From Porpidia crustulata (lineage: Eukaryota), in contig CAXUWE010000010.1 in the NCBI GenBank assembly GCA_964255105.1, forward strand, positions 1 through 34,155: a stretch of DNA of 34,155 nt, read 5' to 3'. Below are positions 36 to 30,661 of this stretch, one piece after another (position 1 is the stretch's first letter; every line of letters starts with the position of its first letter). A program made the translations under genes and the position numbers. The notes beneath the pieces are model-generated. The model was not told the DNA's origin, did not search any database, and saw only the letters and a list, made by a program, of their open reading frames with translations.

Positions 36-1406
36 TTAGGAGGCCCCTAACAGTCGTCGATATTTGTGAATAACTAGGGCCGTGAATGTGCTACCCAAGA
101 AAAGTCTTGCAGAAAGGGCAATGATAACGGCCTTTCTCAACAGACCGAAATAGTCATCAAGTGGAGTTTCCCCAGCGATAAGGCGCAATCGATTAGACGA
201 CTGACTGAGTGACGTAGAGTATGCTTTAGAGTCTATCCCGCCAATTTCGGTTTCCCGAGAGGCGGTATCAATCGGTGTAGTCCCCATAGAATTGCAATTA
301 GTCTCAAGAATACTTTGTAGCCTGAGACTGTAAGTCATAGCTTTGATAATGCACCTGATATCCAAAGGAGATAGTGTGGGCCAAGCCCAAAGTCCCGAAG
401 TATCCTCGGCAGAGATATGTTTAAGAAAGTCTGCAGTGATACCGAGCGTCAAGCCCCATAGTAGCAAAGGTTTTCTTGAGACATTTGATTTATATCCATG
501 ACCAAGCCACCACGACCGAATACGATCACGCAAGTTTTTCATCATGGATTTGTGAACTTCCGGTAAGAAATCAGGAACAGAGCTGCAATACAAGCTCTCT
601 GCTGGCATCAGCTCTACGGCATTGAAAAGCATTTGGCCAAGAATGGCCCGAAGCACAATTCTTGATATTTGATGACCTGGCCTGGTCAAACGGTCAGCTA
701 CGTCACAGCATTGGTAAGTCTTGAGCGCTGGTGACAGTAGCGCGCGGATAGGAACCCAATGCACAGAGCTGACTTCCGCAGGTTGCAAAGTCAATGGCAA
801 GAGGTCATAGCGCATCGCAAGGTAGATGTAAGAACAGAGAACCATAAGCCTACTAACGTTAACGAAGAATCCCTAGCATACCCCTTACCTAAGTACATAC
901 GGCGTCTTCCCCCAGAAAGCGGTTACTACGCGTTCCGCGAGCTTACCTACACGTAGGAAGTGGTCTTCGTCGAGATCTAAACCAATTTCCTCCTTAGTTT
1001 CCCGCACACTTGTCGATTGATCATCCAATTCATCCGGCTCCCTCTTACCACCAGGCAAAGCAATTTGGCCCGTCCATCTATCACCTTTCCTAGTAGCACG
1101 CTTGATAAACAACACTTCAGGATCCCCCTGCTGAACCCAGTCTTGCAGAAAGAAATTCTCCAAGCGCTTGTAAATAGAGCCTACGCCTCTTCCGTGCTTC
1201 TCTGGCCTGTAAGCCGCTTGATGAGGGAATACAGGCCGAATCCGAACAACGAGAGCAACAGAGGCTCTTTTGTGGCACCCTCCTGGGTTAGGTATGTGTG
1301 GACAAGGGCTGTCGTGAATGTCGTATAAGGCAGTTTGAAGCTTTCTAATGAGGTTCGCTGGAAGCTGAGTCTCTTCAGCACTGCCTTCGTTGAGCGCGGA
1401 CTCCAT
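36..1406 (-). CDS. Nudix hydrolase, CoA-pyrophosphatase-like subfamily, with a C-terminal hydrophobic segment (439 aa; exons 1406-901, 849-36)
   Basis: Nudix box GGKREPDELDDQSTSVRETKEEIGL preceded by RWTGQIALPGG. Intron 900-850 (GTATGT...TAG) joins ORF 885..1436 to ORF 36..845 in frame (WGKTP-LMVLCS). First ATG is at 1406. Confidence 0.88.
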
Positions 1407-1601
1407 GTAGACAAAGCGAACAAGATATGATACCAAGCATCTCGGATAGATAGGAAGTCGTGGGAGAATAAGCGATGCGCTTGGCGGCTATGAAGCTCGG
1501 TCCTGCGCGCCTCAATCCGTCAACGATACGGAGTGTTTATTGCAGCCTCGAGACAGACAGGCTAATCTCTTTCGGGCTCTGGTAATCACCGAGTACCTGA
1601 T

Positions 1602-4091
1602 ATGCGGTTTGAAAAGACACTCAAAGCCTCCATCTACGAGCCGTGGAAGTCTCATTACATCGACTACACAAAGCTCAAGTGTATGCTACGGGAAGATGAC
1701 GCCCGGGGAGACGTCAAAAACTACTCGAAGCCGTCATGGACTGAAGACGATGAGAGTGCATTTGTTGAGCAGCTAGTCAACGTTCAGTTGGAGAGTGTCA
1801 ATGCATTCCAAGTCGAAACCTATAAGCGGCTTCAAGGACGAACATCTCGATGTGAAACAGAATTAGAGGACTTCATTAGGGTTGGAAGTCGTGATGAAAA
1901 GATTTACAATTCCACTGGAGCTAACCAGCAGAAGACGCCTGAGGTGCTGAGCCAAGTGCTCAGTGAACTTGATAGCATTACCACGGAGATTAATGAGTTG
2001 GAAAAGTTCAGCCGCTTGAACTTCACTGGATTTCTCAAGGCTGCGAAGAAGCATGATAGACGTCGAGGCTTGAGATATAAAGTCCTGCCATTATTACAAG
2101 TACGATTAGCAGCGCTTCCTTTCAATGCCGAAAATTACTCGCCGTTGCTTTACCGGTCAGTTTGCTGGTGCTGATAAAACGGTTATCAGATTCTTTCTAA
2201 TTCAGAGTAGGCTCTCAGCCATGTATTCTTTTGTGAGACACAACTCGCAAGGAAGTCAGGCTGGAGTAGCGCCTGTGTCTGAGACAAAGATTGGTGGGGA
2301 TAAATACAAATCATACAAATGTCTGCGAGCCACACAGATTTACCTAGGGTCATGCTAAGTCATTGCAGTTTGGGTGCATCCAGAAAATATATTGGAGGTT
2401 AAGACCTACATTCTTCGCCGGTTACCAGTGCTAGTCTTCAACCCACAGACCTCTAAAATTGCTGATAGCTGTCAATCGGATCCCACGATAACCTCCTTGT
2501 ATTTCGATAACCCTCAATTCTCTTTGTATAATCACAAGGTCTCCAACTTTGCCAAAGCATCCTCTTTACGCCTAAGATGGTTTGGTCGTTTAGGTGATAC
2601 ACCAGAAATCTTGTTGGAGAGGAAGATTACTGGAGAGAATGGTGATAGTGAAGAGGCTCGTTTTCCCATCAAAAAGAGATACGTACAACCATATATTTTG
2701 GGAGAGTACAAACTAGAGAAAAGAATAGCAAAGCTTCGAGAGCGACAGGGGAGTGACGCCAATGACGTTATCCAGCTAGAGCAGAACGTCGAAGACATTC
2801 AAAATTTTATCGAGGAGAATGCGCTCCAGCCTGTACTGAGAGCCAATTATACTCGTACGGCTTTTCAAATTCCAGGCGACGACAGAGTCCGAATATCGCT
2901 TGACACTGAATTAGCTTTCATTAGGGAGGACGCTCTTGATATTGATCGGCCATGTCGCAGTCCTGACCAATGGCATCGTGCCGAAATTGACGTGGCAGGC
3001 ATGGGATTTCCATTTTCGGGTATTCGTCAAAGGGAAATTTCGCTATTCCCTTACGCTATCTTAGAAATTAAGGTCCGTAATGGTGCTGCTAGGAGAACCC
3101 AGGAATGGATCGATGAATTAATGTCCTCCCATCTTGTCAAAAGTGCACCACGGTTCTCAAAATTTGTGCACGGCATTGCTCAACTGTTTGAGGATCAAGT
3201 CAACAGTTTTCCCTTCTGGTTAAAAGATTCGGAGATCGATATTAGGAGGGACCCTGGCACTGCATTTCAAGAGGAGCAGGAGGAGAAAGCAAAACAGACA
3301 GAAAACGAATCAGCTGCAGGCAGCCTACTCGGGAACAAATCTGTTTCATCATTCAGAGTAGGCGTCGGTTCTCCTGTGAGCAGACCTGCAACTGCAACCA
3401 ACATGATGGGACCGAAACTTGGAATAGACGATTTTGCCGAGGAGGCTGACTCAGAGGATGAAGCGGAGCAGACAAGTTTTCCAGCTCCATCAACCATCCC
3501 ACGCGTTCGGTCCTTCCTACCTCCATTTTCAAGTTCGAAGTATGCGCGTGCCCATCGAAGTGGACCAGTGCAGCTCCCACCAGGACTTAGCGAACCTGGC
3601 CAGCTGATTAAGGACTCTGGACCCGTGCGTGTGGAGCCTAAGGTTTGGCTTGCCAACCAAAGGACGTTCATTAAATGGCAGCATATTTCTGTTCTGTTGG
3701 CGTCGTTATCGTTAGGGCTCTACAACGCAGCGGGAGTTTCAAACAGTACAGCACGTGCCTTGGCTGTGGTTTATACATTGATAGCTGCTTTTGCTGGAAT
3801 CTGGGGTTGGTGGATGTACCAAGTTCGCAGTCAGATGATACAACAGCGGAGCGGAAAGGATTTCGATGCAGTCTTCGGTCCGATACTGATTTGCATTGGC
3901 CTCATCATTGCGCTAATGATCAACTTTGTAATGAAGGTAAGTACTTAATCTGGTTTTTTTTGGCTCATACTGATACTGTGTAGTATCGCACAGTCGATAT
4001 GATGGTCTACGAAGGGCAAAGCTATAACGAAGCTCTCAAACGTATCGGTAGAGTTCAAGATGATCTCAAGGTTCCTGGGTGGATCAATTAA
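1602..4091 (+). CDS. VTC2: Vacuolar transporter chaperone subunit, Vtc2/Vtc3-type (SPX + VTC tunnel domain + 3-TM DUF202; 779 aa; exons 1602-2155, 2211-2320, 2369-3936, 3984-4091)
   Basis: SPX motifs MRFEKTL..YIDYTKLK and NFTGFLKAAKKHDR. VTC motifs SYKFWVHPENILEVKTYILRRLP, ITSLYFDN, LRLRW, YTRTAFQIPGDDRVRISLD. TM-region motif VEPKVWLANQRTFIKW. Three GT-AG introns restore one frame. Confidence 0.9.
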
Positions 4092-8575: not shown

Positions 8576-9709
8576 TTATCCATCGGTCTCATCTTTGACA
8601 GCCTTCACTTGCTCTGCTTTTGAGGAGTCACTTTCGTCCAGACTACTGCTCTTCTCACTGATCGGGCTTCCTTCGATCATAAAACCTTCACTTCTCTCTA
8701 CAAGGCTTCGATAGTAATCCACGAGTACCTCAGGTTTCGGCACGATCCTCCACTCGACCCTCCAAAGGAACTCTAATTCCAGTAGCGCTAGCTCTTTGAG
8801 ACTGACTCCTCCAACTCTAGCATAGGTATTGTTTGTCCAAAACGAATCACTAAGCCCTTTACTTGCGACAGTCGCGCTGGTGATTAAGAAACGATGGACA
8901 GTGAGGGAGGATATGGTGAATGCAGGATACAGAGCACAAAGCCGGTCAATGTAGTACACCATACTGAGCAAGATAGGCGGCGAAAGGGTTGCATGCGTCG
9001 TTAACCGCTGAAGATAGTCCTTGACGCTAATTCCAGGCGGAGCTCGAGAATGAAACCTGGTTAAGCGGCCATCTTTCAAGGGAATATCATCGTTGAAACG
9101 CACAAGCTCCATAAGCATATTACTTATAAGCAGGACGAGATCTTTGACATCACATGTCTCATATTGCGCAGGCATGTATTTGGCTGCAGATTTGGGCGGG
9201 CGGGCTCGTTTGGGAGATGACCCTTGACTAGATGAAGAAGCCGATTTGGCAAGCGTCGTCGAGGATACTGTGGCTGCTTGAGAGATTGATGACGACACGT
9301 TCGTGCGTTTGGATGACATTTGCGGTGCCAGAGTAGGCTCTTTGGGAATTTCCGGTGACTGCGATAAACTTCTCCGTTTTCCCAAAGAGTCCTGGGGCTT
9401 CGTCATTGATGGTACGCCTGCGAGAGGCGGGGAGTACTGAGTGCTCGCATCCACCGTTTGGTTGGTCGAAGGATACGTTGACTGGCTTGACCTAGATGTT
9501 GGACGCTTATGGGGGTTCGGGGCGGTGGATTTAGCCTGAGGGGGTTTCCGTGGAAATGCACCTGGTGAAGGAGGCTTAATGTAAGGACGTGGAGACGGAT
9601 TAGAAGGGAAGTGGTATAATCCATGATGGGAGTTATGGTGGAAACCCGCTCTGGGGGAGACTGAAGCAGTACTGGCGTGGAGCGTTGGTGATGGAGATGA
9701 TGTTATCAT
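8576..9709 (-). CDS. preg: PHO80/PREG-type Pho85 cyclin, negative regulator of the phosphate regulon (377 aa from ATG 9709; the ORF stays open upstream to ATG 10000)
   Basis: Cyclin box LTRFHSRAPPGISVKDYLQRL..LLSMVYYIDRL..SSLTVHRFLIT..VASKGLSDSFWTNNTYARVGGV..ELALLELEFL after a Ser/Pro-rich N-terminus. The start choice is inferred. Confidence 0.9.
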   Translation of the reverse strand: MITSSPSPTLHASTASVSPRAGFHHNSHHGLYHFPSNPSPRPYIKPPSPGAFPRKPPQAKSTAPNPHKRPTSRSSQSTYPSTNQTVDASTQYSPPLAGVPSMTKPQDSLGKRRSLSQSPEIPKEPTLAPQMSSKRTNVSSSISQAATVSSTTLAKSASSSSQGSSPKRARPPKSAAKYMPAQYETCDVKDLVLLISNMLMELVRFNDDIPLKDGRLTRFHSRAPPGISVKDYLQRLTTHATLSPPILLSMVYYIDRLCALYPAFTISSLTVHRFLITSATVASKGLSDSFWTNNTYARVGGVSLKELALLELEFLWRVEWRIVPKPEVLVDYYRSLVERSEGFMIEGSPISEKSSSLDESDSSKAEQVKAVKDETDG

Positions 9710-11463
9710 CTCAAAATTCTCGTCGGAAACACTGTAGGCAGTGTTGCTGCCGCCACTAGATGTGGAAAACGGGCTTGTTTGCAGAGCACTACCGTTTGTC
9801 TGGGCAAACAAGGCAAGAGCATACTTGTAAAGGCGAGAGATAATTGTGCGTTCGTCGTAGCTGCATGGGACAAAGTCGGAATAGCGGGACTCTCGTAAGG
9901 ATGAAGTTCGCCAAGCCCCATCTGCGTAATAGTGTCTTTGCGCCTGCCGTTGTCTTTCGTACGGCAACCTCTCCGCATAAGGACGCGGTCGCTTGGGCAT
10001 ATCTATTTATATATTATCACTATCTCACCTCACATTTGACGGCAGAGCAGCAATACACTACAATAATTGTAGTAAGTACCGGATTGGCTGCAGGAAATTG
10101 ACAATGAGATCTGAGTTTCTTACGATCAAAATAAGCTTTACTCGGGTTCCTTCCCGTACAGGAATTCTGTAGGTATATATATATGTGCGTGTAGATTGAT
10201 GTATGTACTACAGGATGTACATCACTCTCCTTGCGCTCTCCATTGTGGAACTAGTGACGCCGTTTCCCCCGGATTCTTCCCCGCAAAGATCTCTTCGGAA
10301 GCGCAAGCACAGGCATTGTTTTGACTGCCGACTGCCGCACCGATTTCCCTTCCTGCAATTTGCACAGCAATGTTGCAAAGTACAGATGTCGTTGGAAAAG
10401 CGCAACAGATGCATCGTGTAAACACGTTTCAAAGTCGTTGCTGTTTCCGCGATTGCAGTTGGGAAGATGGATATGCGCCATGGCTTTGGTCTCTGACCGC
10501 AGCCGCTGCATAGGATGAGCGTCGCGTATCCGGAAACCCTGGCGAGCCTGATCAGATGAACTCAGATAATCTCATAAGGTACTAAAAAGAGTTCCACACT
10601 GAATTCGAGACTGAAGAGAACGGATGCCATGTGGTGAAATAAATTAGGGGTAGTAAAATAGAATGGAGTTGTAAGTCGTTCATCGAACTTGTGCGTTTGA
10701 AGGCACCAACATTATGCTCCATAGCCCGAGAAGTAGTGGAAATAAGGAATTGACTTGATGATTATAACGCTTTGCCTTTCAGCTTTTTGTTAGTATGTTG
10801 TTCGGTTCATTGGATAAAGTACGAAATTGGCAAATGTAAACATGATCAAAATCCTATTGACATGGCATCTGGGCCAACTTGAAAGTAGATATTGAGGTAT
10901 GACAAGAACTACATACAGCGGTGACACTTGTTACTCGGTACTGCATCGATGCTGACCTTGAAGAATTGATTCTACATTGCAATATCTCGTGACAAAGCGT
11001 CGGAGTGATGATGAAGCATCGAAAGGTCGGCGCGGAGGAAGTACAGTAGGTACTTTGTCCGACTTCCCGACAACACGTCAACCACACATGAGGTAGTGTG
11101 GCAGTATAGCCAACGGAGTGCACAGACATCTACCTTACTTTACATTGCTACCCAGTATCCAATTCTGACGCTGGAGAATTGAAAGAAAGGTCCATACTCG
11201 GTGTGAGTCGTAGCAATAGTCAGTGTATGCTATCTGGCAATCTAGCTCACAGTCCTTCAGCATCAATTGCTTATCGAGAGACAAGTCAACAAATACAACT
11301 CGAATTGCTGGAACAGTTCTTCAGAGCTTTGCCTAGCAGTAGCTGCAACTCCATAAACAGGCTCCATATACTGACCGATTGCTGCTCATCTGCCTCATCC
11401 AGCTACTCATGACCAAGCAGAACGATAGCCGCAAACAGAGACTACGCTGTCTTCGATAAGACC

Positions 11464-21772: not shown

Positions 21773-24720
21773 TCAGGCACTCACTCGTTGGTAGAAGAGC
21801 AAGTAAGCGACCTTATTGTCCTTCACCGAGGAGCGTCCAATAGGGGTGATTTTTCCAGATGAAAGAGCTGGTGTAGCAATTCCATTCACGACACCGGACC
21901 ACTGTTTTTTCGCTGCTGACCCTGAAGCCACGCCATTGACTTGGTTCCACCCTTTCCCCGACCAAGCTTGCTCCTCACCCTCGGAGGTAAATCCATCATA
22001 AAAGTTGTCGCTTGAACTTTGATCGTTCTTGTGCTGTTCTAGAGCAGCGGCAAGAACTTTTGGGTCTTCCTCGCTACCTCCTTCAGCAACGTCTTCATTT
22101 CGAACGCGGCGAATAATTGTATCATCAAGCCTAATCCATTCTCGGCCATCTTGACGTCGAACGTCAACGGTATAGTGGCCTCCACTTGCGGTCTTGCCAT
22201 GATGATAGACGACTCCAATCAGACGATATTTCGGCAGGCCTCCATGAGCTATCAAGCCACCTCTCTTGTGTTGAGGGAATACTTCTTTGGGTATTTCAAG
22301 CTCAAGCGGATAGCCAACCTTCTTCCAGATCTTTTGCGTGCCTCCAGTATTGTCATACTGGAAGCGCTTGAGATGAAGGATCAGGACCGGTGGAAGAGTC
22401 TCAATAGTCACCTGCTTCGTTGCTAGAGCACCTGGCCCTCGAGGAGAGTGGAAGTCTCCATGTAAAGTCTCAGGTCTAGTCAGACCTTTCAACGCGTCAA
22501 CGATATTGTTGACCTGAGGTGCACCAATATCAAGTTGGAGAGGCTGATAAGGCTCTAGTGTCACCGAATTCTTCATGCCTGGCACCCTCAACTCGGACCG
22601 AAGCTTTCCGCCAAAAATCTTAGTAATTGGTGATTCTGTAATGATTGCACCTGATGACCGAGTGATTGCTGATTTCTGCTTCGGCCCTACTTCAAGCCAG
22701 CCGCCATCACCTGCCGTAGTGGACTCAGTAGAATTGCTGACCGGAGACACAACACCGTTCGTTGGGGTCGAAGCGCCAGATGAAGTTTTGCTATTTGCTG
22801 ATTTCATAGCTCTACTACACTCATCGTGCATTTCCTCTAAAAGAAATCCAAGAAACTCCTCCGCATCCTGTTGGTGTCCACGCTAGCAGAACTTCGAATT
22901 AGCAAAGATTATCCAAGATTGGGAATGGCTTACCCTCATGGAGGAGAACCGTGGTAAGCGTCTAATGACCTCGTAGACAAACTCGGGAGTGAAGGCCTCG
23001 CCATATTGCTCGAGCTCATTGTCTCTCAACCGCATCCGTAACTGCTCGACAGATACTGCAGAATCAATTACGGAAAATTCGCGCATGAACATTATCCTAG
23101 GAACAACAAAATTTAGTATGAGACACGACTGACTGCGCTGCTGCGCGCTTACATTGCATCAACCAATGGAGTATCACTTTTGAAGCTGTGCACTGCTCGC
23201 CTCCCGATCTTCTCAAGACAATCGTAGAATGGAATGCAAAAAACTAGTATTTGTAGGACCTGAATTGGGGGTTAACGATGGAGATGATTTGTAGGAAAGT
23301 AAAGACTGCTGCACAGTGACTTACGGAATTCATATAGCACATATTCCCGGTATTGATGAGTCCTCTTGGCTCCAAGAAGGAGATTTTGGAGTCACCATTA
23401 CCGCCGTTCATCGAGAACGAGCTTAGTACATTAGCCAAAGATCCGGACTTTGAAGAAGTAAAACCGTTGGCTTGCGTATCCCCACCATGAAGGACCTTGC
23501 CTGGGTTGACTGCTGCAGGAGTCTTAACAAGGTCTGCCCATCTTCTTGGTGCGGCTTTCCCCGGCGGAGATACGAAGCGGGTCGTGGGATCTGATACTAC
23601 CAGCGAGGCTTGGCCGTTAGCAGTATCAATTGCTGCTATGGCATGTGCCGTCTGGGCTGTGGCTGTTGGCAAGGATTGCGCAATCCCTTTTGAATCCGAG
23701 GCAATGCTGACGGAAACTCGTTTAGTGGGCCGCGCAGCTATGGGGACATTGAGGACAACGGGGACGATTGGGATAATAGGAAACGCTGCTCGAGTCAATG
23801 ATTTAGTATTTTGAGCTTGGTTTCCCGAGGGCGCTGGTATGACAACAGAGGATGGTGTAGTTGGTTGCGTGGAGTCTGATTCTGAGGGTGCATGTGATGT
23901 TTGGGGGGTTTCGAGGTATTGTTGCACGGGTATGTTATTTTGCGGCTGATCCGTCAGGAGATCTTCGGGGGGGTCTGCCGTCATGTTTTCTTGTAGGGGT
24001 TCCGATGTAAGATCATTATCTGATTCTGCCTTGATACCTTCTGTAGCCTTGATGGCTGGAACAGACCCATCTCTCGTCGGCAATTCAACGGCTATGCTAG
24101 AAGACTGTGGAGCTCGCCGTTGTCGGCGTCGGCGTGGTATTCTTGGGGGTAAAGAGCCTTCAGCAAAGGAATACCAGGGCAACTGCTTTTCATTAGCGCC
24201 TTTACTGGTGGATTGCTCCCAATAGTAGACCTACGGGAGGATAATATGGCATCCGCCGAGAGGGCGGCGAAGGGGGTGTTGTCGAAACTAGGTGTGGGTT
24301 CGGTGTACTTGGCGGCGGTATAGATGGCACATGTAGCGATGTTGTTGAAGATGAAGGAGAAAGCATGTCTTGATGGGAGTGAATTGAAGACGAAGAGGGC
24401 GCGTGGTATGGTGGATGTGGATGGTGCTGTACAGGCGGTTGATGTTGTTGTTGCACCTGGTATGGGGCATTTACCATCGGCGAATAGTGCGGATATGGCC
24501 TTGCCATTGGATGTTGGTATTGGTACCATTGCGGTGGAGGCTGCTGCTGGAAGTGCTGTGGAGGAGGGCCGTGGGAGTATTGGGGCTGCTGATAGCCGTG
24601 GTAGAACTGCGGATGGTGCGAAGACGATGGAGGGGTGTATGCCAGCTCGTGCGGTCTTCGGCCATTATAGAGAGGTATAGCTGGCTGAACATGAGATATT
24701 GGCGGAAGATGACTGTTCAT
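21773..24720 (-). CDS. UBP3: Ubiquitin-specific protease UBP3/USP10 (907 aa; exons 24720-24235, 24182-23325, 23259-23153, 23096-22934, 22882-21773)
   Basis: Cys box EPRGLINTGNMCYMNSVLQIL, GHQQDAEEFLGF, LPPVLILHLKRF, His box VVYHHGKTASGGHYTVDV, AYLLFYQR. Pro/His/Gln-rich N-terminus with LPWYS and WADLV motifs. Four GT-AG introns. Confidence 0.93.
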
Positions 24721-25235
24721 CACGGTTGAGGAAGCCGTGACAGGCTTCCAGCTGGCCGACTGTCAGCCCCGATGAGTTCTGCCAGTACTTCTCTGCGTGC
24801 TGATGAATTTTCAAATGCTCCGCTGATATGCATTGACTTCGGAATAAGTAGGTCTCAACCCTCAAGTAGTAATATCCTATGATGGGTGAACTGATCGCGT
24901 CACGAACGTTATTATCATTCAGTTGCAGCGTTTTTAGTATGGAGATGATAATATGAATCCACCGACAGACCAGAATTCACAAGATCCCGCGACAGGGGAC
25001 TCGACTTTAGATACAAGCAAATTCGTTTACGGGCAGAGTTGGAAAGGCTGAAGTAGATTCAGAAAGCACATTGTTATTACTACGTTATTATGATGACAAC
25101 GGGGTGAGTTTGACTGATCAATTGTGCCCATACGGAGCGCCTAGTTGTCCGCAGTCGCAGAAAGACACTGTTTACTTGTGGGGAGGCTGTAGGTGGTCAC
25201 CTAGAAAATATCCTAGGCAGGTTAGTAGCTGGCTT

Positions 25236-25347
25236 ACTCGTTCTCACCCCTCAACGGACCACCTAACCAAGCTAACCTAGGCACGTAGGGTTAGGGTTAC
25301 ATATACCAGCGCTGGTTAGGGTGGTCCGTTGAGGGGTGAGAAAGAGT
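25236..25347. repeat. About 35-bp imperfect inverted repeat (arms 25236-25269 and 25313-25347) around a 43-nt spacer with TTAGGG-type motifs
   Basis: Left arm ACTCGTTCTCACCCCTCAACGGACCACCTAACCA versus right arm TGGTTAGGGTGGTCCGTTGAGGGGTGAGAAAGAGT: 1 mismatch and 1 indel. The spacer contains TAGGGTTAGGGTTA (25286-25299). Confidence 0.92.
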
Positions 25348-25358
25348 CAAGACAGTCG

Positions 25359-25370
25359 TCACGTCACGTG
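25359..25370. promoter_or_regulatory. Overlapping CRE-like (ACGTCA) and GTCACGTG E-box (Cbf1-type bHLH) motifs in the UBP3/MAG2 divergent promoter
   Basis: The sequence is TCACGTCACGTG, about 205 nt upstream of the MAG2 ATG. Motif match only. Confidence 0.4.
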
Positions 25371-25574
25371 CCTTTGATGTGGCTCGCAATGACTCCCGTC
25401 CATCCCCCTCAGTATGGTGTACACTACTATTCCAGTCCCACCCCCTCGGGGAACGACGAACTCACAAAGCATAAGATCCTTGCAGCTTATCCGTAGGATT
25501 TCGGATTCCTGTCATACATAGAAAGTGGATAGATCCGCTTCGAGATATACTATTCCTTCCTCGGGATTTGCAGG

Positions 25575-27985
25575 ATGTCCAATTCAGTGCCTTCGGTGGT
25601 CATATCGAAGAACTCGAATCCACCCTCTCAATTACTATCCCCCTCACAGCCTCAGAACAGCTCTTTGTTTTCTTTCGAGACTCATGCCCAGCGCCGGAGT
25701 GGCGGATCTGGTAGCTACGGTGCTGGTTCAACCTCTCGTACTACATCATTCACAGCCAGAAGTAACCAACAGCTCCGGAAACAGCACAAGGGCCAACGAC
25801 GGCTAAAGCTCGCGGATGAGGATGCTGCTGCTGAGTCCGTGAGCAAGCCTTCCGGGCCTCCGTCCTACGTGCGGCTGTCGTGTGACTGACGACATGCATA
25901 GGCGGCGATGCAGTCGACCAACAGCCGTAAGGGGCGTACTTCGATAACCCATCTTATGAACTTCACTCTTCCGCCTCGCCCTCAAAGCCATCAGCACTCC
26001 TATCTAGGGCAGCAGACGCGACGAAACCGGACGTGGGGTTTGGGGTCAGGGCATCATGCCGTAGACAAAGCAAGGCTAGTTACGAGCTACTGCTCAAATT
26101 CCACCAGGTACTAATATTGCTCAGATACATTCACGCCAACTATCGGTTCATTGTAGATCCGAGGGGGAATTATCAAGCTCAGGCTGCGGACGCAGACGTA
26201 CATTTAGACTGGAACGTGGTGCTCCAAATTCTTGTCTCCGCGCAATCGCAATCGACAAACTGCCCTATTTGCCTCTCGACCCCTGTTGCCCCGAGAATGG
26301 GTAAATGTGGGCACATTTTTTGCCTCCCTTGCCTGATTCGATACATGCACTCTACTGATGACTCGAACCCAATGCCGGAGAAAAAGGCCAGATGGAAGAA
26401 ATGTCCAATCTGCTGGGACACCGTTTACATATCCGAGACGCGACCGGTCCGTTGGTTCCAGGGCCAGGAGGGGGAAGCTCCTCAAGAGGGTGGCGACGTC
26501 GTTTTGAGACTAATCACCCGACAGCCAGGAAGTACCCTTGCTCTTCCCCGAGATGGCACAGAGTCTCTTGAGAAGGTGGAAGATATCCCGTGGTATTTTG
26601 CTGCAGAGGTCATGGACTACGCACGTGTTATGAAGGGGAGCGAGGATTATATGGTAGACCAATATGAAGGAGAAATTGCGGACCTTCAAACACATGAGAA
26701 AGAAGACGAATTGATGTTTGGGGAAGAAACTCAGTGGACGAAGAGAGCGGTCTTGGCCATTCAAGAAGCAAAAGAAAAGGTGAGAGGCCTCGGGAATGCT
26801 CCGAGTCCGCCTCAACAACCATTGGAGAAAAAAGCAAAGCGTCCACTCATAAAGTTCCACCAGGACAACGAGGATATCCCTGAATTTTATTTTATGCAGC
26901 ACGCTACGAAATTAGGACAGTCATCGATTGGAGGATGTGCCGTCCGGCAAAGCCAGAGTTCAGAGCTATCTCCTGCTAGAACAATGGACAGACCAACATT
27001 GGGATTTAAAGGCAGCCTGGCAACCGATTTGAATGATGCATCGGCGAACCATCCTATCCCACAACTGCTGAATGGTTCACACATATCCTCGACCCATCCA
27101 CAAGCAAAACCCAGTACCGCAAATCAACATTCACACAACGATACCCCCTTTTTCTTTTACGAGGCATTGCTGCATTACTATCTATCTCCGCTCGATATAC
27201 GTATCCTGAAGACTGCATTCGGTGATTTCGCCAGCTTTCCAACTACCATTCTTCCCCGTGTGGAGCGAGTTTCCACGGGACATATTGTCGACGACGAACT
27301 ACGGCGGCGAGCAAAGTATCTTTCGCACCTTCCTCATGGCTGCGAAGTTGGTTTTCTGGAGTGCAATTGGACGGATGTTGTTGCTCCGGAAATTCTTCAA
27401 GAATTTTCGGATGACATTCAGCGGCGGCGCACTAAGAATCGAGAGAAGGAAGTACGAGAAGAGAAAGAGCGGATCAGGGCTGAGAAGGAAGAAGACGATA
27501 AGCGCTGGCCCAACGCACGGCGGAAACGACCTGATTCCGGTCGTGGGTCGATACTTAGCGCTGATTCTAAGCCAGTGCCATGCCTGGAGGAGAGATTTGA
27601 GGTTTCGCAGTTCATCGGTCTGGAATCTGACTCGTCGTCACCACCATGGACATCTTCACGGGGGCAAAATGGATCAGCTTTTGCTTCGCTGGCATCGCCA
27701 TCTACAAGTCCCAATACTCCGAGAACCGTTTGGGGGACTACTGCGATTATTCCAACATCGCCTACCTTGCCTGCAGTCTCTCAGGAGCATGACCCTTCTG
27801 ATAATGACGGCTGGCTCCAAGGCTGGGAACGGGATCTCCTACACGACGATGCCTTAGTCGCGCAAGTAAATGCAATTTCATTGGCTGAAGCCGATCCCAA
27901 GGCTGTCATAGCTGGTGTTGGCAGCAAGAAGAGAAAGGGTAAGAAGATCACCCTGATGACTACAAATGCACGCAGGGGCGCATGA
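25575..27985 (+). CDS. MAG2: C3HC4 RING E3 ligase of the MAG2/RNF10 family (765 aa; exons 25575-25838, 25902-26074, 26125-27985)
   Basis: SITHLMNFTLPPRP; DKARYIHANYRFIV; RING CPICL..RMGKCGHIFCLPCL..KKCPICWD; YYLSPLDIRILK; DELRRRAKYLSHLP; C-terminal KKRKGKKITLM. Intron 2 has a GC donor. Confidence 0.9.
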
Positions 27986-28457: not shown

Positions 28458-30431
28458 ATGACCTTGACTCGAAGCCAGACGGGGAGAACCCCAAAGTATG
28501 GTTATTTTTACTCAATTGTCCAATGCCTTTCACTCCATGTTCCACAGTCAAGTTTCAGGATAGTTAGGATTTGCGAAATGCTAATGTGTCTCTAGAAAGA
28601 GGGCGGATCCAAATTACGTCGATATATCAACGCGCTGGTCGCGCTGTCGTCAATCGGAAATCCCCGATATCAGCAGCGAGGAGTCTGAGGCGCAAGATAA
28701 GAAGATTAATGGGCAACCTTCTGCTAGGAGCAAGCCAATTAGCAGGACAGCTAAACCGAACGGTGTTACTAGTCGCATAGTCAACACCACAGTCAATGGT
28801 GCAGCCAAAGGTGCAGCGAACGGTGCAACGAACGGTACAGCGAACGGTACAGCCAATGGTACAGCCAATGGCACAGCCAACGGTATAGCTAACGGACTCA
28901 CTGAGAGAAACAAAAAGCTCATTGGTAAAGCTGGAGCGGGCAAAGACCATCGAATCGACTATACTGGACACTTTGAGTTTGGCGGAGCATGGGGTGTCAG
29001 TGCCATGATGATCGGATTCCCCTTGCTTATGTGGTACATGTGGATCGGCGCAACGTACTATAACGGTCATCTCCCGTTACCGGCTGATGGAGAAAATGTG
29101 TCCGAATTCGTGCGTCACATGGGTTCTTTGGTATTCGAAGGTGCTTTCCCGACAATCAAGGCTTGGATTATTTATTGGAGCTTCTTTGTGTTCGAGATGA
29201 TCTGTTACCTATACTTGCCCGGTATCACAACTAAGGGAAAGCCTTTGGCACATGCAGGAGGCAGGCGACTGACCTACTACTGCTCTGGAACGTGGTCTCT
29301 TTACACCACTATTGTCATGGCAGCCATCCTCCATGTGACGGGCGTATTCAAACTGTATACACTCATTGATGAGTTTGGACCCCTGATGTCGGTTGCGATT
29401 ATCACTGGCTACTTCGTTTCATTTATTGCATACGTCTCTGCCCTGTACAGAGGTGCAGAGCATCGCATGTCTGGCTCTCCTGTGTACGACTTCTTCATGG
29501 GCGCAGAATTAAATCCGAGGATGTTCGGAATCTTAGACTTCAAGATGTTTTTTGAGGTTAGGTTACCATGGTACATTCTTTTTTTGCTCTCGTCTGCGGC
29601 AGCAGCACGTCAGTACGAACAGTTTGGCTGGGTCTCAGGCGAAGTTGGGTTCCTAGTCATGGCCCATTTCCTTTACGCAAATGCGTGTTCTAAGGGCGAG
29701 GAACTAATCGTAACCACCTGGTAAGCAAAAATTCGTTGATACTTGAAATCTTGCTTATGCAACGCCTAGGGACATGTATTATGAAAAATGGGGATTCATG
29801 CTCATTTTTTGGAATCTCGCTGGCGTACCACTCAGTTACTGCCATTGTACAATATTCTTGGCAAACCATGCACCATCTGTTTATCGGTGGAACCGCTTTG
29901 GATTGGCTGTATTCTACATCGCTTACCTCTTCGTCTATTGGGTTTGGGATACTGCCAATAGCCAGAAGAACTGTTTCAGACACGAGGAGCGAGGCACGCT
30001 CACGAACCGGAAAGCATTTCCCCAACTGCCATGGCAAAGAGTCAAGAACCCGAAGACCATTGAGACCGAGGCCGGGGATTCCTTATTGGTAGATGGGTGG
30101 TGTAAGTTTTGTTTCAAGACAGAATTGCTTCGCAGCCGGCTGACGCAACGGCAGACGGGTATGCCAGGAAGATCAATTACACCTGCGACTTGTATTTCGC
30201 GTTATCGTGGGGCCTCATCACGGGTTTCAGAAGCCCATTCCCGTGGTTTTACCCTCTATTCTTTGCGGTTATGATAGCGCATAGAGCACTCCGCGATATC
30301 CAAAAGTGCCAGACAAAATACGGCGAGGCTTGGGACGAGTATACCCGACGGGTTCCATACTTATTTATACCGGTAAATGACTCCTCTAGTTTCGCTATTC
30401 CTCAACTAACAACCCTTAGTATGTATTGTGA
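28458..30431 (+). CDS. ERG4: Delta24(24(1))-sterol reductase (574 aa; exons 28458-28495, 28596-29720, 29770-30101, 30155-30372, 30420-30431)
   Basis: [107 protein letters not shown]. Four GT-AG introns. Confidence 0.95.
28795..28896 (+). repeat. Coding minisatellite, 12-bp unit x 8.5 (consensus AAYGGTRCAGCC), encoding (NGAA/NGTA)n
   Basis: AATGGTGCAGCC AAAGGTGCAGCG AACGGTGCAACG AACGGTACAGCG AACGGTACAGCC AATGGTACAGCC AATGGCACAGCC AACGGTATAGCT AACGGA. Confidence 0.95.
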
Positions 30432-30661
30432 GAGTCTGCGACCATTGGGGGGTGTACATACTGTATATATATACTGTCATAATACCAATCATAATTCAAT
30501 TGGGATAACTGTTCCTGCTTTAGTGAATTTTTGTTTGAAAACCTTCCTCGTTAAGAAATCGAATGGTTGCCGACCTGCGCTTAAGTCGTCACCTACGACG
30601 TGGGGTCGGGTAAGGTTTAAAGCTTCATAGATGCTCTCTAAACCGACACCGAAGCGACAAA

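Follow-up and report, generated by a model that had tools for sequence, protein, structure and literature searches.

Head-to-head linkage of predicted Ubp3/USP10-type protease and Mag2/RNF10-type RING ligase genes in Porpidia crustulata and related ascomycetes

Why should the genes for two enzymes with opposite effects on ribosomal ubiquitin lie head-to-head in a lecanoromycete fungus? The question is raised by a 34,155-nucleotide stretch of Porpidia crustulata DNA (assembly GCA_964255105.1, contig CAXUWE010000010.1, positions 1 to 34,155 of the forward strand), referred to here as the window. A predicted ubiquitin-specific protease (USP) gene of Ubp3/USP10 type (UBP3) and a predicted RING ligase gene of Mag2/RNF10 type (RNF10) diverge in it from one upstream region. 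Comparison with related loci points to a real and old linkage of a known writer/eraser pair, one that has apparently not been described before.

The original prediction, made from the sequence alone, placed the start codons at 24720 (-) and 25575 (+), with a gene-free spacer of 854 bp (24721–25574), and the stop codons at 21773 and 27985. This geometry was confirmed, and both stops are borne out by the list of open reading frames (ORFs) and by spliced models. Models of both genes were built by reading the sequence as fungal DNA with short spliceosomal introns. Both align end to end with full-length lichen-fungus NCBI proteins at 61–67% identity, unbroken at all junctions, and tblastn alignments to the nearest related loci open at residue 1 for both, which backs the two start codons. 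The second RNF10 intron (26075–26124) has a GC-AG border with the donor GCTAGT, and its junction was confirmed against three full-length NCBI proteins. Neither an ORF of ≥80 amino acids nor a tRNA was detected within the spacer. No Rfam family reached gathering score there, and only sub-threshold hairpin matches to plant microRNA models were returned. Coordinates are listed in Table 1.

Table 1. Coordinates of the gene pair, its spacer, and the neighboring features in the window.
Feature	Coordinates	Strand	Basis
UBP3/USP10-type ubiquitin-specific protease, 907 amino acids, 5 exons	21773..24720	-	ORFs, Pfam UCH, splice model, NCBI proteins
UBP3 exons	24720-24235, 24182-23325, 23259-23153, 23096-22934, 22882-21773	-	spliced model
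Upstream region between both start codons, gene-free, 854 bp	24721..25574	.	ORFs, tRNA, Rfam scans
Inverted repeat, 112 bp, 37-nucleotide arms 86% complementary, 38-nucleotide loop	25236..25347	.	repeat search
TGACTC, second copy	25344-25349	-	sequence
CACGTG E-box	25365..25370	.	conserved in nearest relatives (alignment)
TGACTC, RNF10 orientation, 185 bp before RNF10 ATG	25390..25395	+	k-mer screen
Mag2/RNF10-family RING (C3HC4) E3 ligase, 765 amino acids, 3 exons	25575..27985	+	ORFs, Pfam, splice model
RNF10 exons	25575-25838, 25902-26074, 26125-27985	+	spliced model
ERG4/ERG24-family sterol reductase, downstream RNF10 neighbor	28585..30630	+	Pfam PF01222, three exon pieces

The protease consists of a P/Q-rich N-terminal region of about 480 amino acids followed by the USP domain. 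A long disordered N-terminus with a C-terminal USP domain is the architecture we take to be typical of Ubp3/USP10. Pfam UCH (PF00443) matches the last exon with an E value of 2.8e-27, and the start of the Cys box sits on exon 2. The model has an intact Cys box (NTGNMCYMNS) and an intact His box (GGHYTVDV), both conserved in the alignment of relatives, and a block of the N-terminal region, from residue 163 on (LPWYSF...), shows conservation between classes. Specific names among the 120 best long relatives are "mRNA-binding ubiquitin-specific protease UBP3," "ubiquitin carboxyl-terminal hydrolase 3," "processing protease 3," and "hydrolase 10," and none bears a different USP number. Named relatives are about 63–81% identical over the catalytic exon. 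The family names of this protein and of the RING protein are one-directional best-hit evidence from profile searches, and the assignment of the protease to the Ubp3/USP10 family is supported at family level.

The plus-strand gene is matched by RING Pfam models below their curated cut-offs, the tested ORF beginning inside the RING. RING residues C46, C49, C61, H63, C66, C69, C93, and C96 do not vary among 38 aligned family members, and PF00097 is listed as a precomputed annotation on relatives. The closest named relatives are from the Lecanoromycetes Pycnora, Pseudocyphellaria, and Lasallia (63–66% identity), which places the contig in a lichen-type lecanoromycete. A search with E ≤1e-3 yielded 1772 representative homologues, of which distant ones (31–35% identity) match two stretches, residues 1–220 and about 330–540. 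Family-specific blocks flank the RING on its N-terminal (SITHLMNF) and C-terminal (LSPLDIRILK) sides, and both are in the alignment consensus. Relatives in Alternaria and Lachnellula, found with a profile of relatives from other classes, were named "RING finger protein P8B7.23" by annotators. The name refers to the Schizosaccharomyces pombe protein SPBP8B7.23, which we take to be the RNF10 ortholog. An Atlas neighbor cluster bears the name "Alkylbase DNA N-glycosylase," presumably a legacy name of MAG2. Table 2 of PMC2198940 gives MAG2 as YLR427W, the yeast homologue of human RNF10. Membership of the RING protein in the Mag2/RNF10 family is likewise supported at family level, and both predicted gene identities thus hold at that level by relatives' names and domains.

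Passages of a review (PMC10878831) name uS3 and uS5 as RNF10/Mag2 ubiquitination targets, state that these marks rise on USP10 loss, and link constitutive RNF10 action to loss of 40S subunits. Mag2 is named the RNF10 ortholog, required in yeast for uS3/uS5 ubiquitination, in passages of PMC12700985. Opposing ligase and deubiquitinase (DUB) activities on shared ribosomal sites are also described in excerpts of PMC12008924, PMC11604940, and bioRxiv 10.1101/2021.04.20.440649. Passages of the first two sources support the writer/eraser relation of Mag2/RNF10 and Ubp3/USP10 on which the original prediction relied. By names and domain content, the two families in the window are those of yeast Mag2/Ubp3(-Bre5) and human RNF10/USP10(-G3BP). 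Work by Jung et al. from 2017 reportedly concerns the action of Ubp3 on Rps3 monoubiquitin, according to its title. No mention of a genomic linkage between RNF10/Mag2 and Ubp3/USP10 was found in the literature searched, most subscription journals lying outside its coverage. In the same literature, no text containing "P8B7.23" and no match for "ring-15" in Neurospora were found.

Joint Genome Institute (JGI) metagenome contigs were scanned with the 38-sequence alignment, giving 318 confirmed matches. The best 80 were used, with up to 10 kb of flank per side, and UBP3 was sought in them by tblastn with the window proteins and then with 228 full-length named proteins. UBP3 lies upstream of RNF10 on the opposite strand in 45 of the 80 loci, or 45 of the 52 with enough upstream sequence. 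Seven loci have at least 3 kb of upstream sequence and no UBP3 anywhere, and 28 are uninformative, with 1.7 kb or less upstream of RNF10. Recurrence in 45 of 52 informative loci argues that the adjacency is more than chance. Collapsing the 80 loci at 90% protein identity left 43 lineages; the pair is kept in 26, absent in 5, and 12 are uninformative. RNF10 identity among the sampled loci reaches down to about 51%.

Class labels were assigned to the metagenome loci from gene-tree placement with named NCBI proteins, UBP3 best hits, and taxonomy look-ups, and by these labels the pair-bearing lineages fall in Lecanoromycetes, Leotiomycetes, Eurotiomycetes, and Dothideomycetes (Pleosporomycetidae). 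Those in Leotiomycetes group with Lachnellula, Hyaloscypha, and Phialocephala, and those in Pleosporomycetidae with Paraphoma, Alternaria, and Lophium. Among Eurotiomycetes, UBP3 is 86% identical to that of Lithohypha in one locus (L031) and 93% identical to that of Exophiala in another (L052), and in a third (L080) the N-terminus matches an Aspergillus protein at 80% identity. Independently of these loci, consecutive NCBI locus tags, which give adjacency and not orientation, are assigned to RNF10 and UBP3 on contigs of equal length in seven genomes (Candelaria pacifica, Candelina submexicana, Sarea resinae, Chaenotheca gracillima, Xylographa trunciseda, X. soralifera, and Lambiella insularis). 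ATG-to-ATG spacing is 451–1522 bp, with a median of 890, in the 15 lineages for which both starts could be placed (14 related lineages and the window), and about 1.6–2.0 kb in L040, L047, L048, and L049.

Retention of the pair was compared with that of its neighbors by parsimony on a FastTree phylogeny of RNF10 proteins. UBP3-RNF10 adjacency requires 2 changes, with the pair present in 26 of 31 lineages (window included; L001 omitted, its match being only 22 amino acids). Tandem RNF10-ERG24 adjacency requires 8 changes on the same tree and is present in 13 of 32 lineages, with ERG24 immediately downstream of RNF10. A census was made by all-against-all comparison of ORFs of ≥120 amino acids from the 21 longest lineage representatives and the window. 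UBP3 recurs in 19 of these 22 loci. ERG24, which ranks next in retention, is found in 13; another family occurs in 6 and a fructosamine kinase in 4, and the remaining families are limited to one or two clade groups. Clearly, then, the pair is better kept than its surroundings. The comparisons for breadth and against neighbors had been set beforehand by the original prediction, and they came out on the side of linkage, with at least four classes and 2 versus 8 changes for the adjacent junction.

ERG24 does not keep to one side of the pair. It is mostly downstream of RNF10 in Lecanoromycetes and Eurotiomycetes and mostly on the UBP3 3′ side in Leotiomycetes. It lies past the UBP3 3′ end in five lineages, directly adjoining in four Leotiomycetes (L011, L013, L017, and L041) and about 5 kb off in a lecanoromycete (L065). 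Inversion of the UBP3-RNF10 unit would produce this pattern. Passages of PMC3219968 describe chromosome content as kept in filamentous ascomycetes while gene order and orientation are shuffled.

The fission yeast offers a comparison outside Pezizomycotina. Passages of PMC3032702 give S. pombe ubp3 as SPBP8B7.21. The RNF10-family protein P8B7.23 is two systematic numbers away from it. By the S. pombe naming convention, we take both genes to lie on one cosmid, two positions apart, leaving space for a single gene in between. By our estimate, a given pair of genes in a set of about 5000 would be this close by chance in roughly 1 of 1000 cases. This near-linkage suggests that the linkage is older than Pezizomycotina, and does not suggest a shared divergent promoter in fission yeast. 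Judged by names only, S. pombe resembles the window in having the same two families close by and differs in having proximity with no divergent promoter.

Motifs were sought by a k-mer screen of pair-bearing intergenic regions. At -400 to -100 of the RNF10 ATG, 19 of 25 pair-bearing lineages have a forward TGACTC; when random 300-bp windows were drawn 2000 times from these loci, the count averaged 1.92 and never exceeded 7. No other 6-mer is as common in that interval, and the element, which usually lies about 150–350 bp before the RNF10 start, is the only deeply conserved motif found. TGACTC is the core of Gcn4/CpcA sites, and on that reading the locus would be linked to the response to amino-acid and translation stress. 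Two other candidates were rejected as not clearly above background: CACGTG, which 10 of 25 lineages carry in the 700 bp upstream of RNF10, and a PAC-like GATGAG, present in 11 of 15.

On balance, and with limited confidence, we favor selective retention of the divergent pair for co-regulation. A Ubp3/USP10-type DUB would remove, and a Mag2/RNF10-type ligase would add, monoubiquitin on uS3/uS5 of stalled or defective 40S subunits. Both promoters would share one nucleosome-free region and chromatin context, turning the antagonists on and off together. Joint switching would buffer the ligase:DUB ratio, which would in turn decide between rescue and degradation of marked 40S subunits, and rearrangements splitting the pair would mostly be selected against. 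We infer the shared promoter, co-expression, ratio control, and selection on function.

Several observations weigh against selective retention. The pair is absent from one lecanoromycete (L042) and from all four informative Dothideomycetidae-like lineages, a clade with Aureobasidium and Neodothiora. In three of these four, a dienelactone-hydrolase-family gene occupies the divergent slot of UBP3 (L066:7920-8552, L054:3680-4207, and L063:2494-3021, all on the minus strand), a pattern suggestive of one ancient rearrangement. L066 also has a gene for ribosomal protein eS4 about 2 kb upstream. In Xylographa opegraphella, the tags of the two genes are non-adjacent, 11 apart, and the lengths of their contigs differ. 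In S. pombe, neither gene name has a "c" suffix; the two genes are presumably co-oriented on one strand instead of head-to-head. The S. cerevisiae genes, YER151C and YLR427W, are placed on different chromosomes, unlinked, in the source passages, whereas those of this fungus share an upstream region. The best 80 of 318 matches lean towards relatives of the lecanoromycete query, and Sordariomycetes, Pezizomycetes, Orbiliomycetes, Saccharomycotina, and Basidiomycota lie outside the sample. The background for retention consists of one junction and one census, not a genome-wide distribution.

Function and regulation add further points of this kind. Ubp3 also acts on eS7, according to passages of PMC10878831. 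With many substrates, eS7 included, Ubp3 is not specific to the uS3/uS5 pathway. A further role in ribophagy is said to exist, as a paper title has it. Two of the five lineages that lost UBP3 still have a forward TGACTC, at -179 and -218. Its persistence without UBP3 marks it as a probable RNF10-specific element and gives no evidence for a shared promoter. The claim that the 854 bp act as a single bidirectional promoter and set the ligase:DUB ratio is not supported so far, the conserved motif being RNF10-proximal and kept without UBP3. It is further weakened by the linkage of the unrelated ERG24 and by the splitting of the pair, which came apart two or more times and whose members are not linked in S. 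cerevisiae. The conserved TGACTC speaks weakly against a fully shared promoter, and the proposed mechanism with one bidirectional promoter is plausible.

The strongest alternative is passive retention, which has a sizeable chance of being right. A short divergent spacer may leave few harmless breakpoints, or the block may rearrange slowly, and the functional relation would then be a coincidence picked from very many windows. ERG24, a gene without a known link to ribosome quality control, is retained in four of five clade groups, and its deep linkage implies that part of the signal is block-level conservatism. Fructosamine kinase recurs less than 10 kb away in three clade groups, the conserved TGACTC follows RNF10 alone, and no compensation is apparent for the two or more losses of the pair. 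These facts speak for passive retention. It fits less well with a divergent junction that changed 2 times against 8 for the adjoining tandem junction, with a pair left intact while ERG24 changed sides, and with a near-linkage in S. pombe estimated as so rare a coincidence. Nor does it sit easily with the scrambling of gene order and orientation described for filamentous ascomycetes in PMC3219968.

A bolder form of the selective reading is doubtful and is put forward tentatively. The pair could be a writer/eraser cassette for a 40S "degrade-me" mark, inherited from an early ascomycete ancestor and driven by one stress-responsive bidirectional promoter with a Gcn4/CpcA-type TGACTC. Translation stress would raise both enzymes, and their ratio, not their level, would set the fate of 40S subunits. 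The survival of near-linkage in fission yeast is what suggests inheritance from such an ancestor. If correct, this would make it the first eukaryotic example of a conserved gene pair for antagonistic ubiquitin enzymes with the same substrate, and Dothideomycetidae and budding yeast, in which the pair is split, would be natural experiments.

Mistaken orthology is a very improbable explanation. The protease would be another USP paralogue, or the RING protein would not be Mag2/RNF10, and there would be no writer/eraser relation. PDB sequence searches matched generic USP and RING domains only, with no Ubp3/USP10 catalytic domain and no RNF10 entry, and the N-terminal protease exon, the expected place of a motif binding the NTF2-like cofactor (Bre5/G3BP), matched nothing in PDB even at E ≤10, including no solved Ubp3 peptide. 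Against this stand several independent annotations as UBP3, hydrolase 3 or 10, and P8B7.23, a protease architecture that fits Ubp3/USP10, and RNF10-family homology that extends far beyond the RING over two conserved stretches in matches down to 31% identity. That the genes are chance neighbors without constraint, their conservation an artefact of sampling close relatives, is scarcely credible and largely refuted: despite many near-duplicate loci (80 collapsing to 43 lineages) and query-biased sampling, the pair persists in 26 of the 31 informative lineages that remain after collapsing, across four classes and RNF10 identities down to about 51%.

Conserved divergent pairs of functionally related fungal genes include histone H2A-H2B, histone H3-H4, GAL1-GAL10, and niiA-niaD. 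UBP3-RNF10 resembles them in its head-to-head arrangement, sub-kilobase to kilobase spacer, related function, and long retention. Those pairs encode partners or successive steps, whereas this one encodes antagonists. Their co-regulation is documented, whereas that of UBP3-RNF10 is one we infer. It is uncommon for non-paralogous genes to stay linked in filamentous ascomycetes, whose gene order is reported to be shuffled, and the persistence of a ligase and a DUB head-to-head in multiple classes gives independent evolutionary support for Mag2/RNF10 and Ubp3/USP10 as one functional unit in 40S quality control. Selective retention leads to a testable idea, that the stoichiometry of Mag2/RNF10 and Ubp3/USP10 is set by transcription, with TGACTC as a candidate regulatory input and clades with a broken pair as natural controls. 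If retention is passive, the pair still calibrates how far microsynteny alone misleads.

Minor features were recorded in the leaders and spacer. By eye, the forward TGACTC overlaps the ATG of a putative 35-codon upstream ORF (25389–25496) that ends 78 bp before the RNF10 start. The site reads ATGACTC in several lecanoromycete loci and GTGACTC in other classes. A conserved 6-codon upstream ORF at -71 of yeast MAG2 is described in passages of PMC1964767. The 112-bp inverted repeat of the spacer sits in a lineage-specific insertion of about 200 bp that is a gap in the aligned loci L001, L002, L004, and L006. This insertion makes the intergenic region about 250 bp longer than in the nearest relatives. 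The repeat occurs once in the window, is absent from all 80 related loci, and has sub-threshold matches to plant microRNA models that resemble miniature inverted-repeat transposable elements. It may be a small foldback element inserted in the promoter region.

A short inverted repeat (CACGG...CCGTG, 24721–24739) adjoins the UBP3 start codon and is invariant in the window and the four nearest loci. In Pleosporomycetidae, a very stable hairpin of about 60 nucleotides (GUUGCCUCACA...UGUGAAGGCAAC) lies 15–40 nucleotides before the UBP3 start on the minus strand (L026:8705-8765, L036:3655-3715, L055, L073, L044, and L059). Its z-scores are -2.8 to -4.2, and 0–1 of 200 shuffles fold as well. The sequence of the hairpin is conserved, compensatory pairs being absent from all seven sequences, and it could be a 5′-leader structure or a palindromic binding site. 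As a general feature of UBP3 it was rejected, the 80 nucleotides before the ATG in the window having a z-score of -0.08 against shuffles.

Two phosphate-related genes lie close together elsewhere in the window. A NUDIX gene (-) and an SPX-VTC polyphosphate-synthesis gene (+) diverge at 36–3948, with less than 100 bp between their open frames. A gene for a Pho80-type cyclin (8576–10006) lies 5 kb beyond SPX-VTC.

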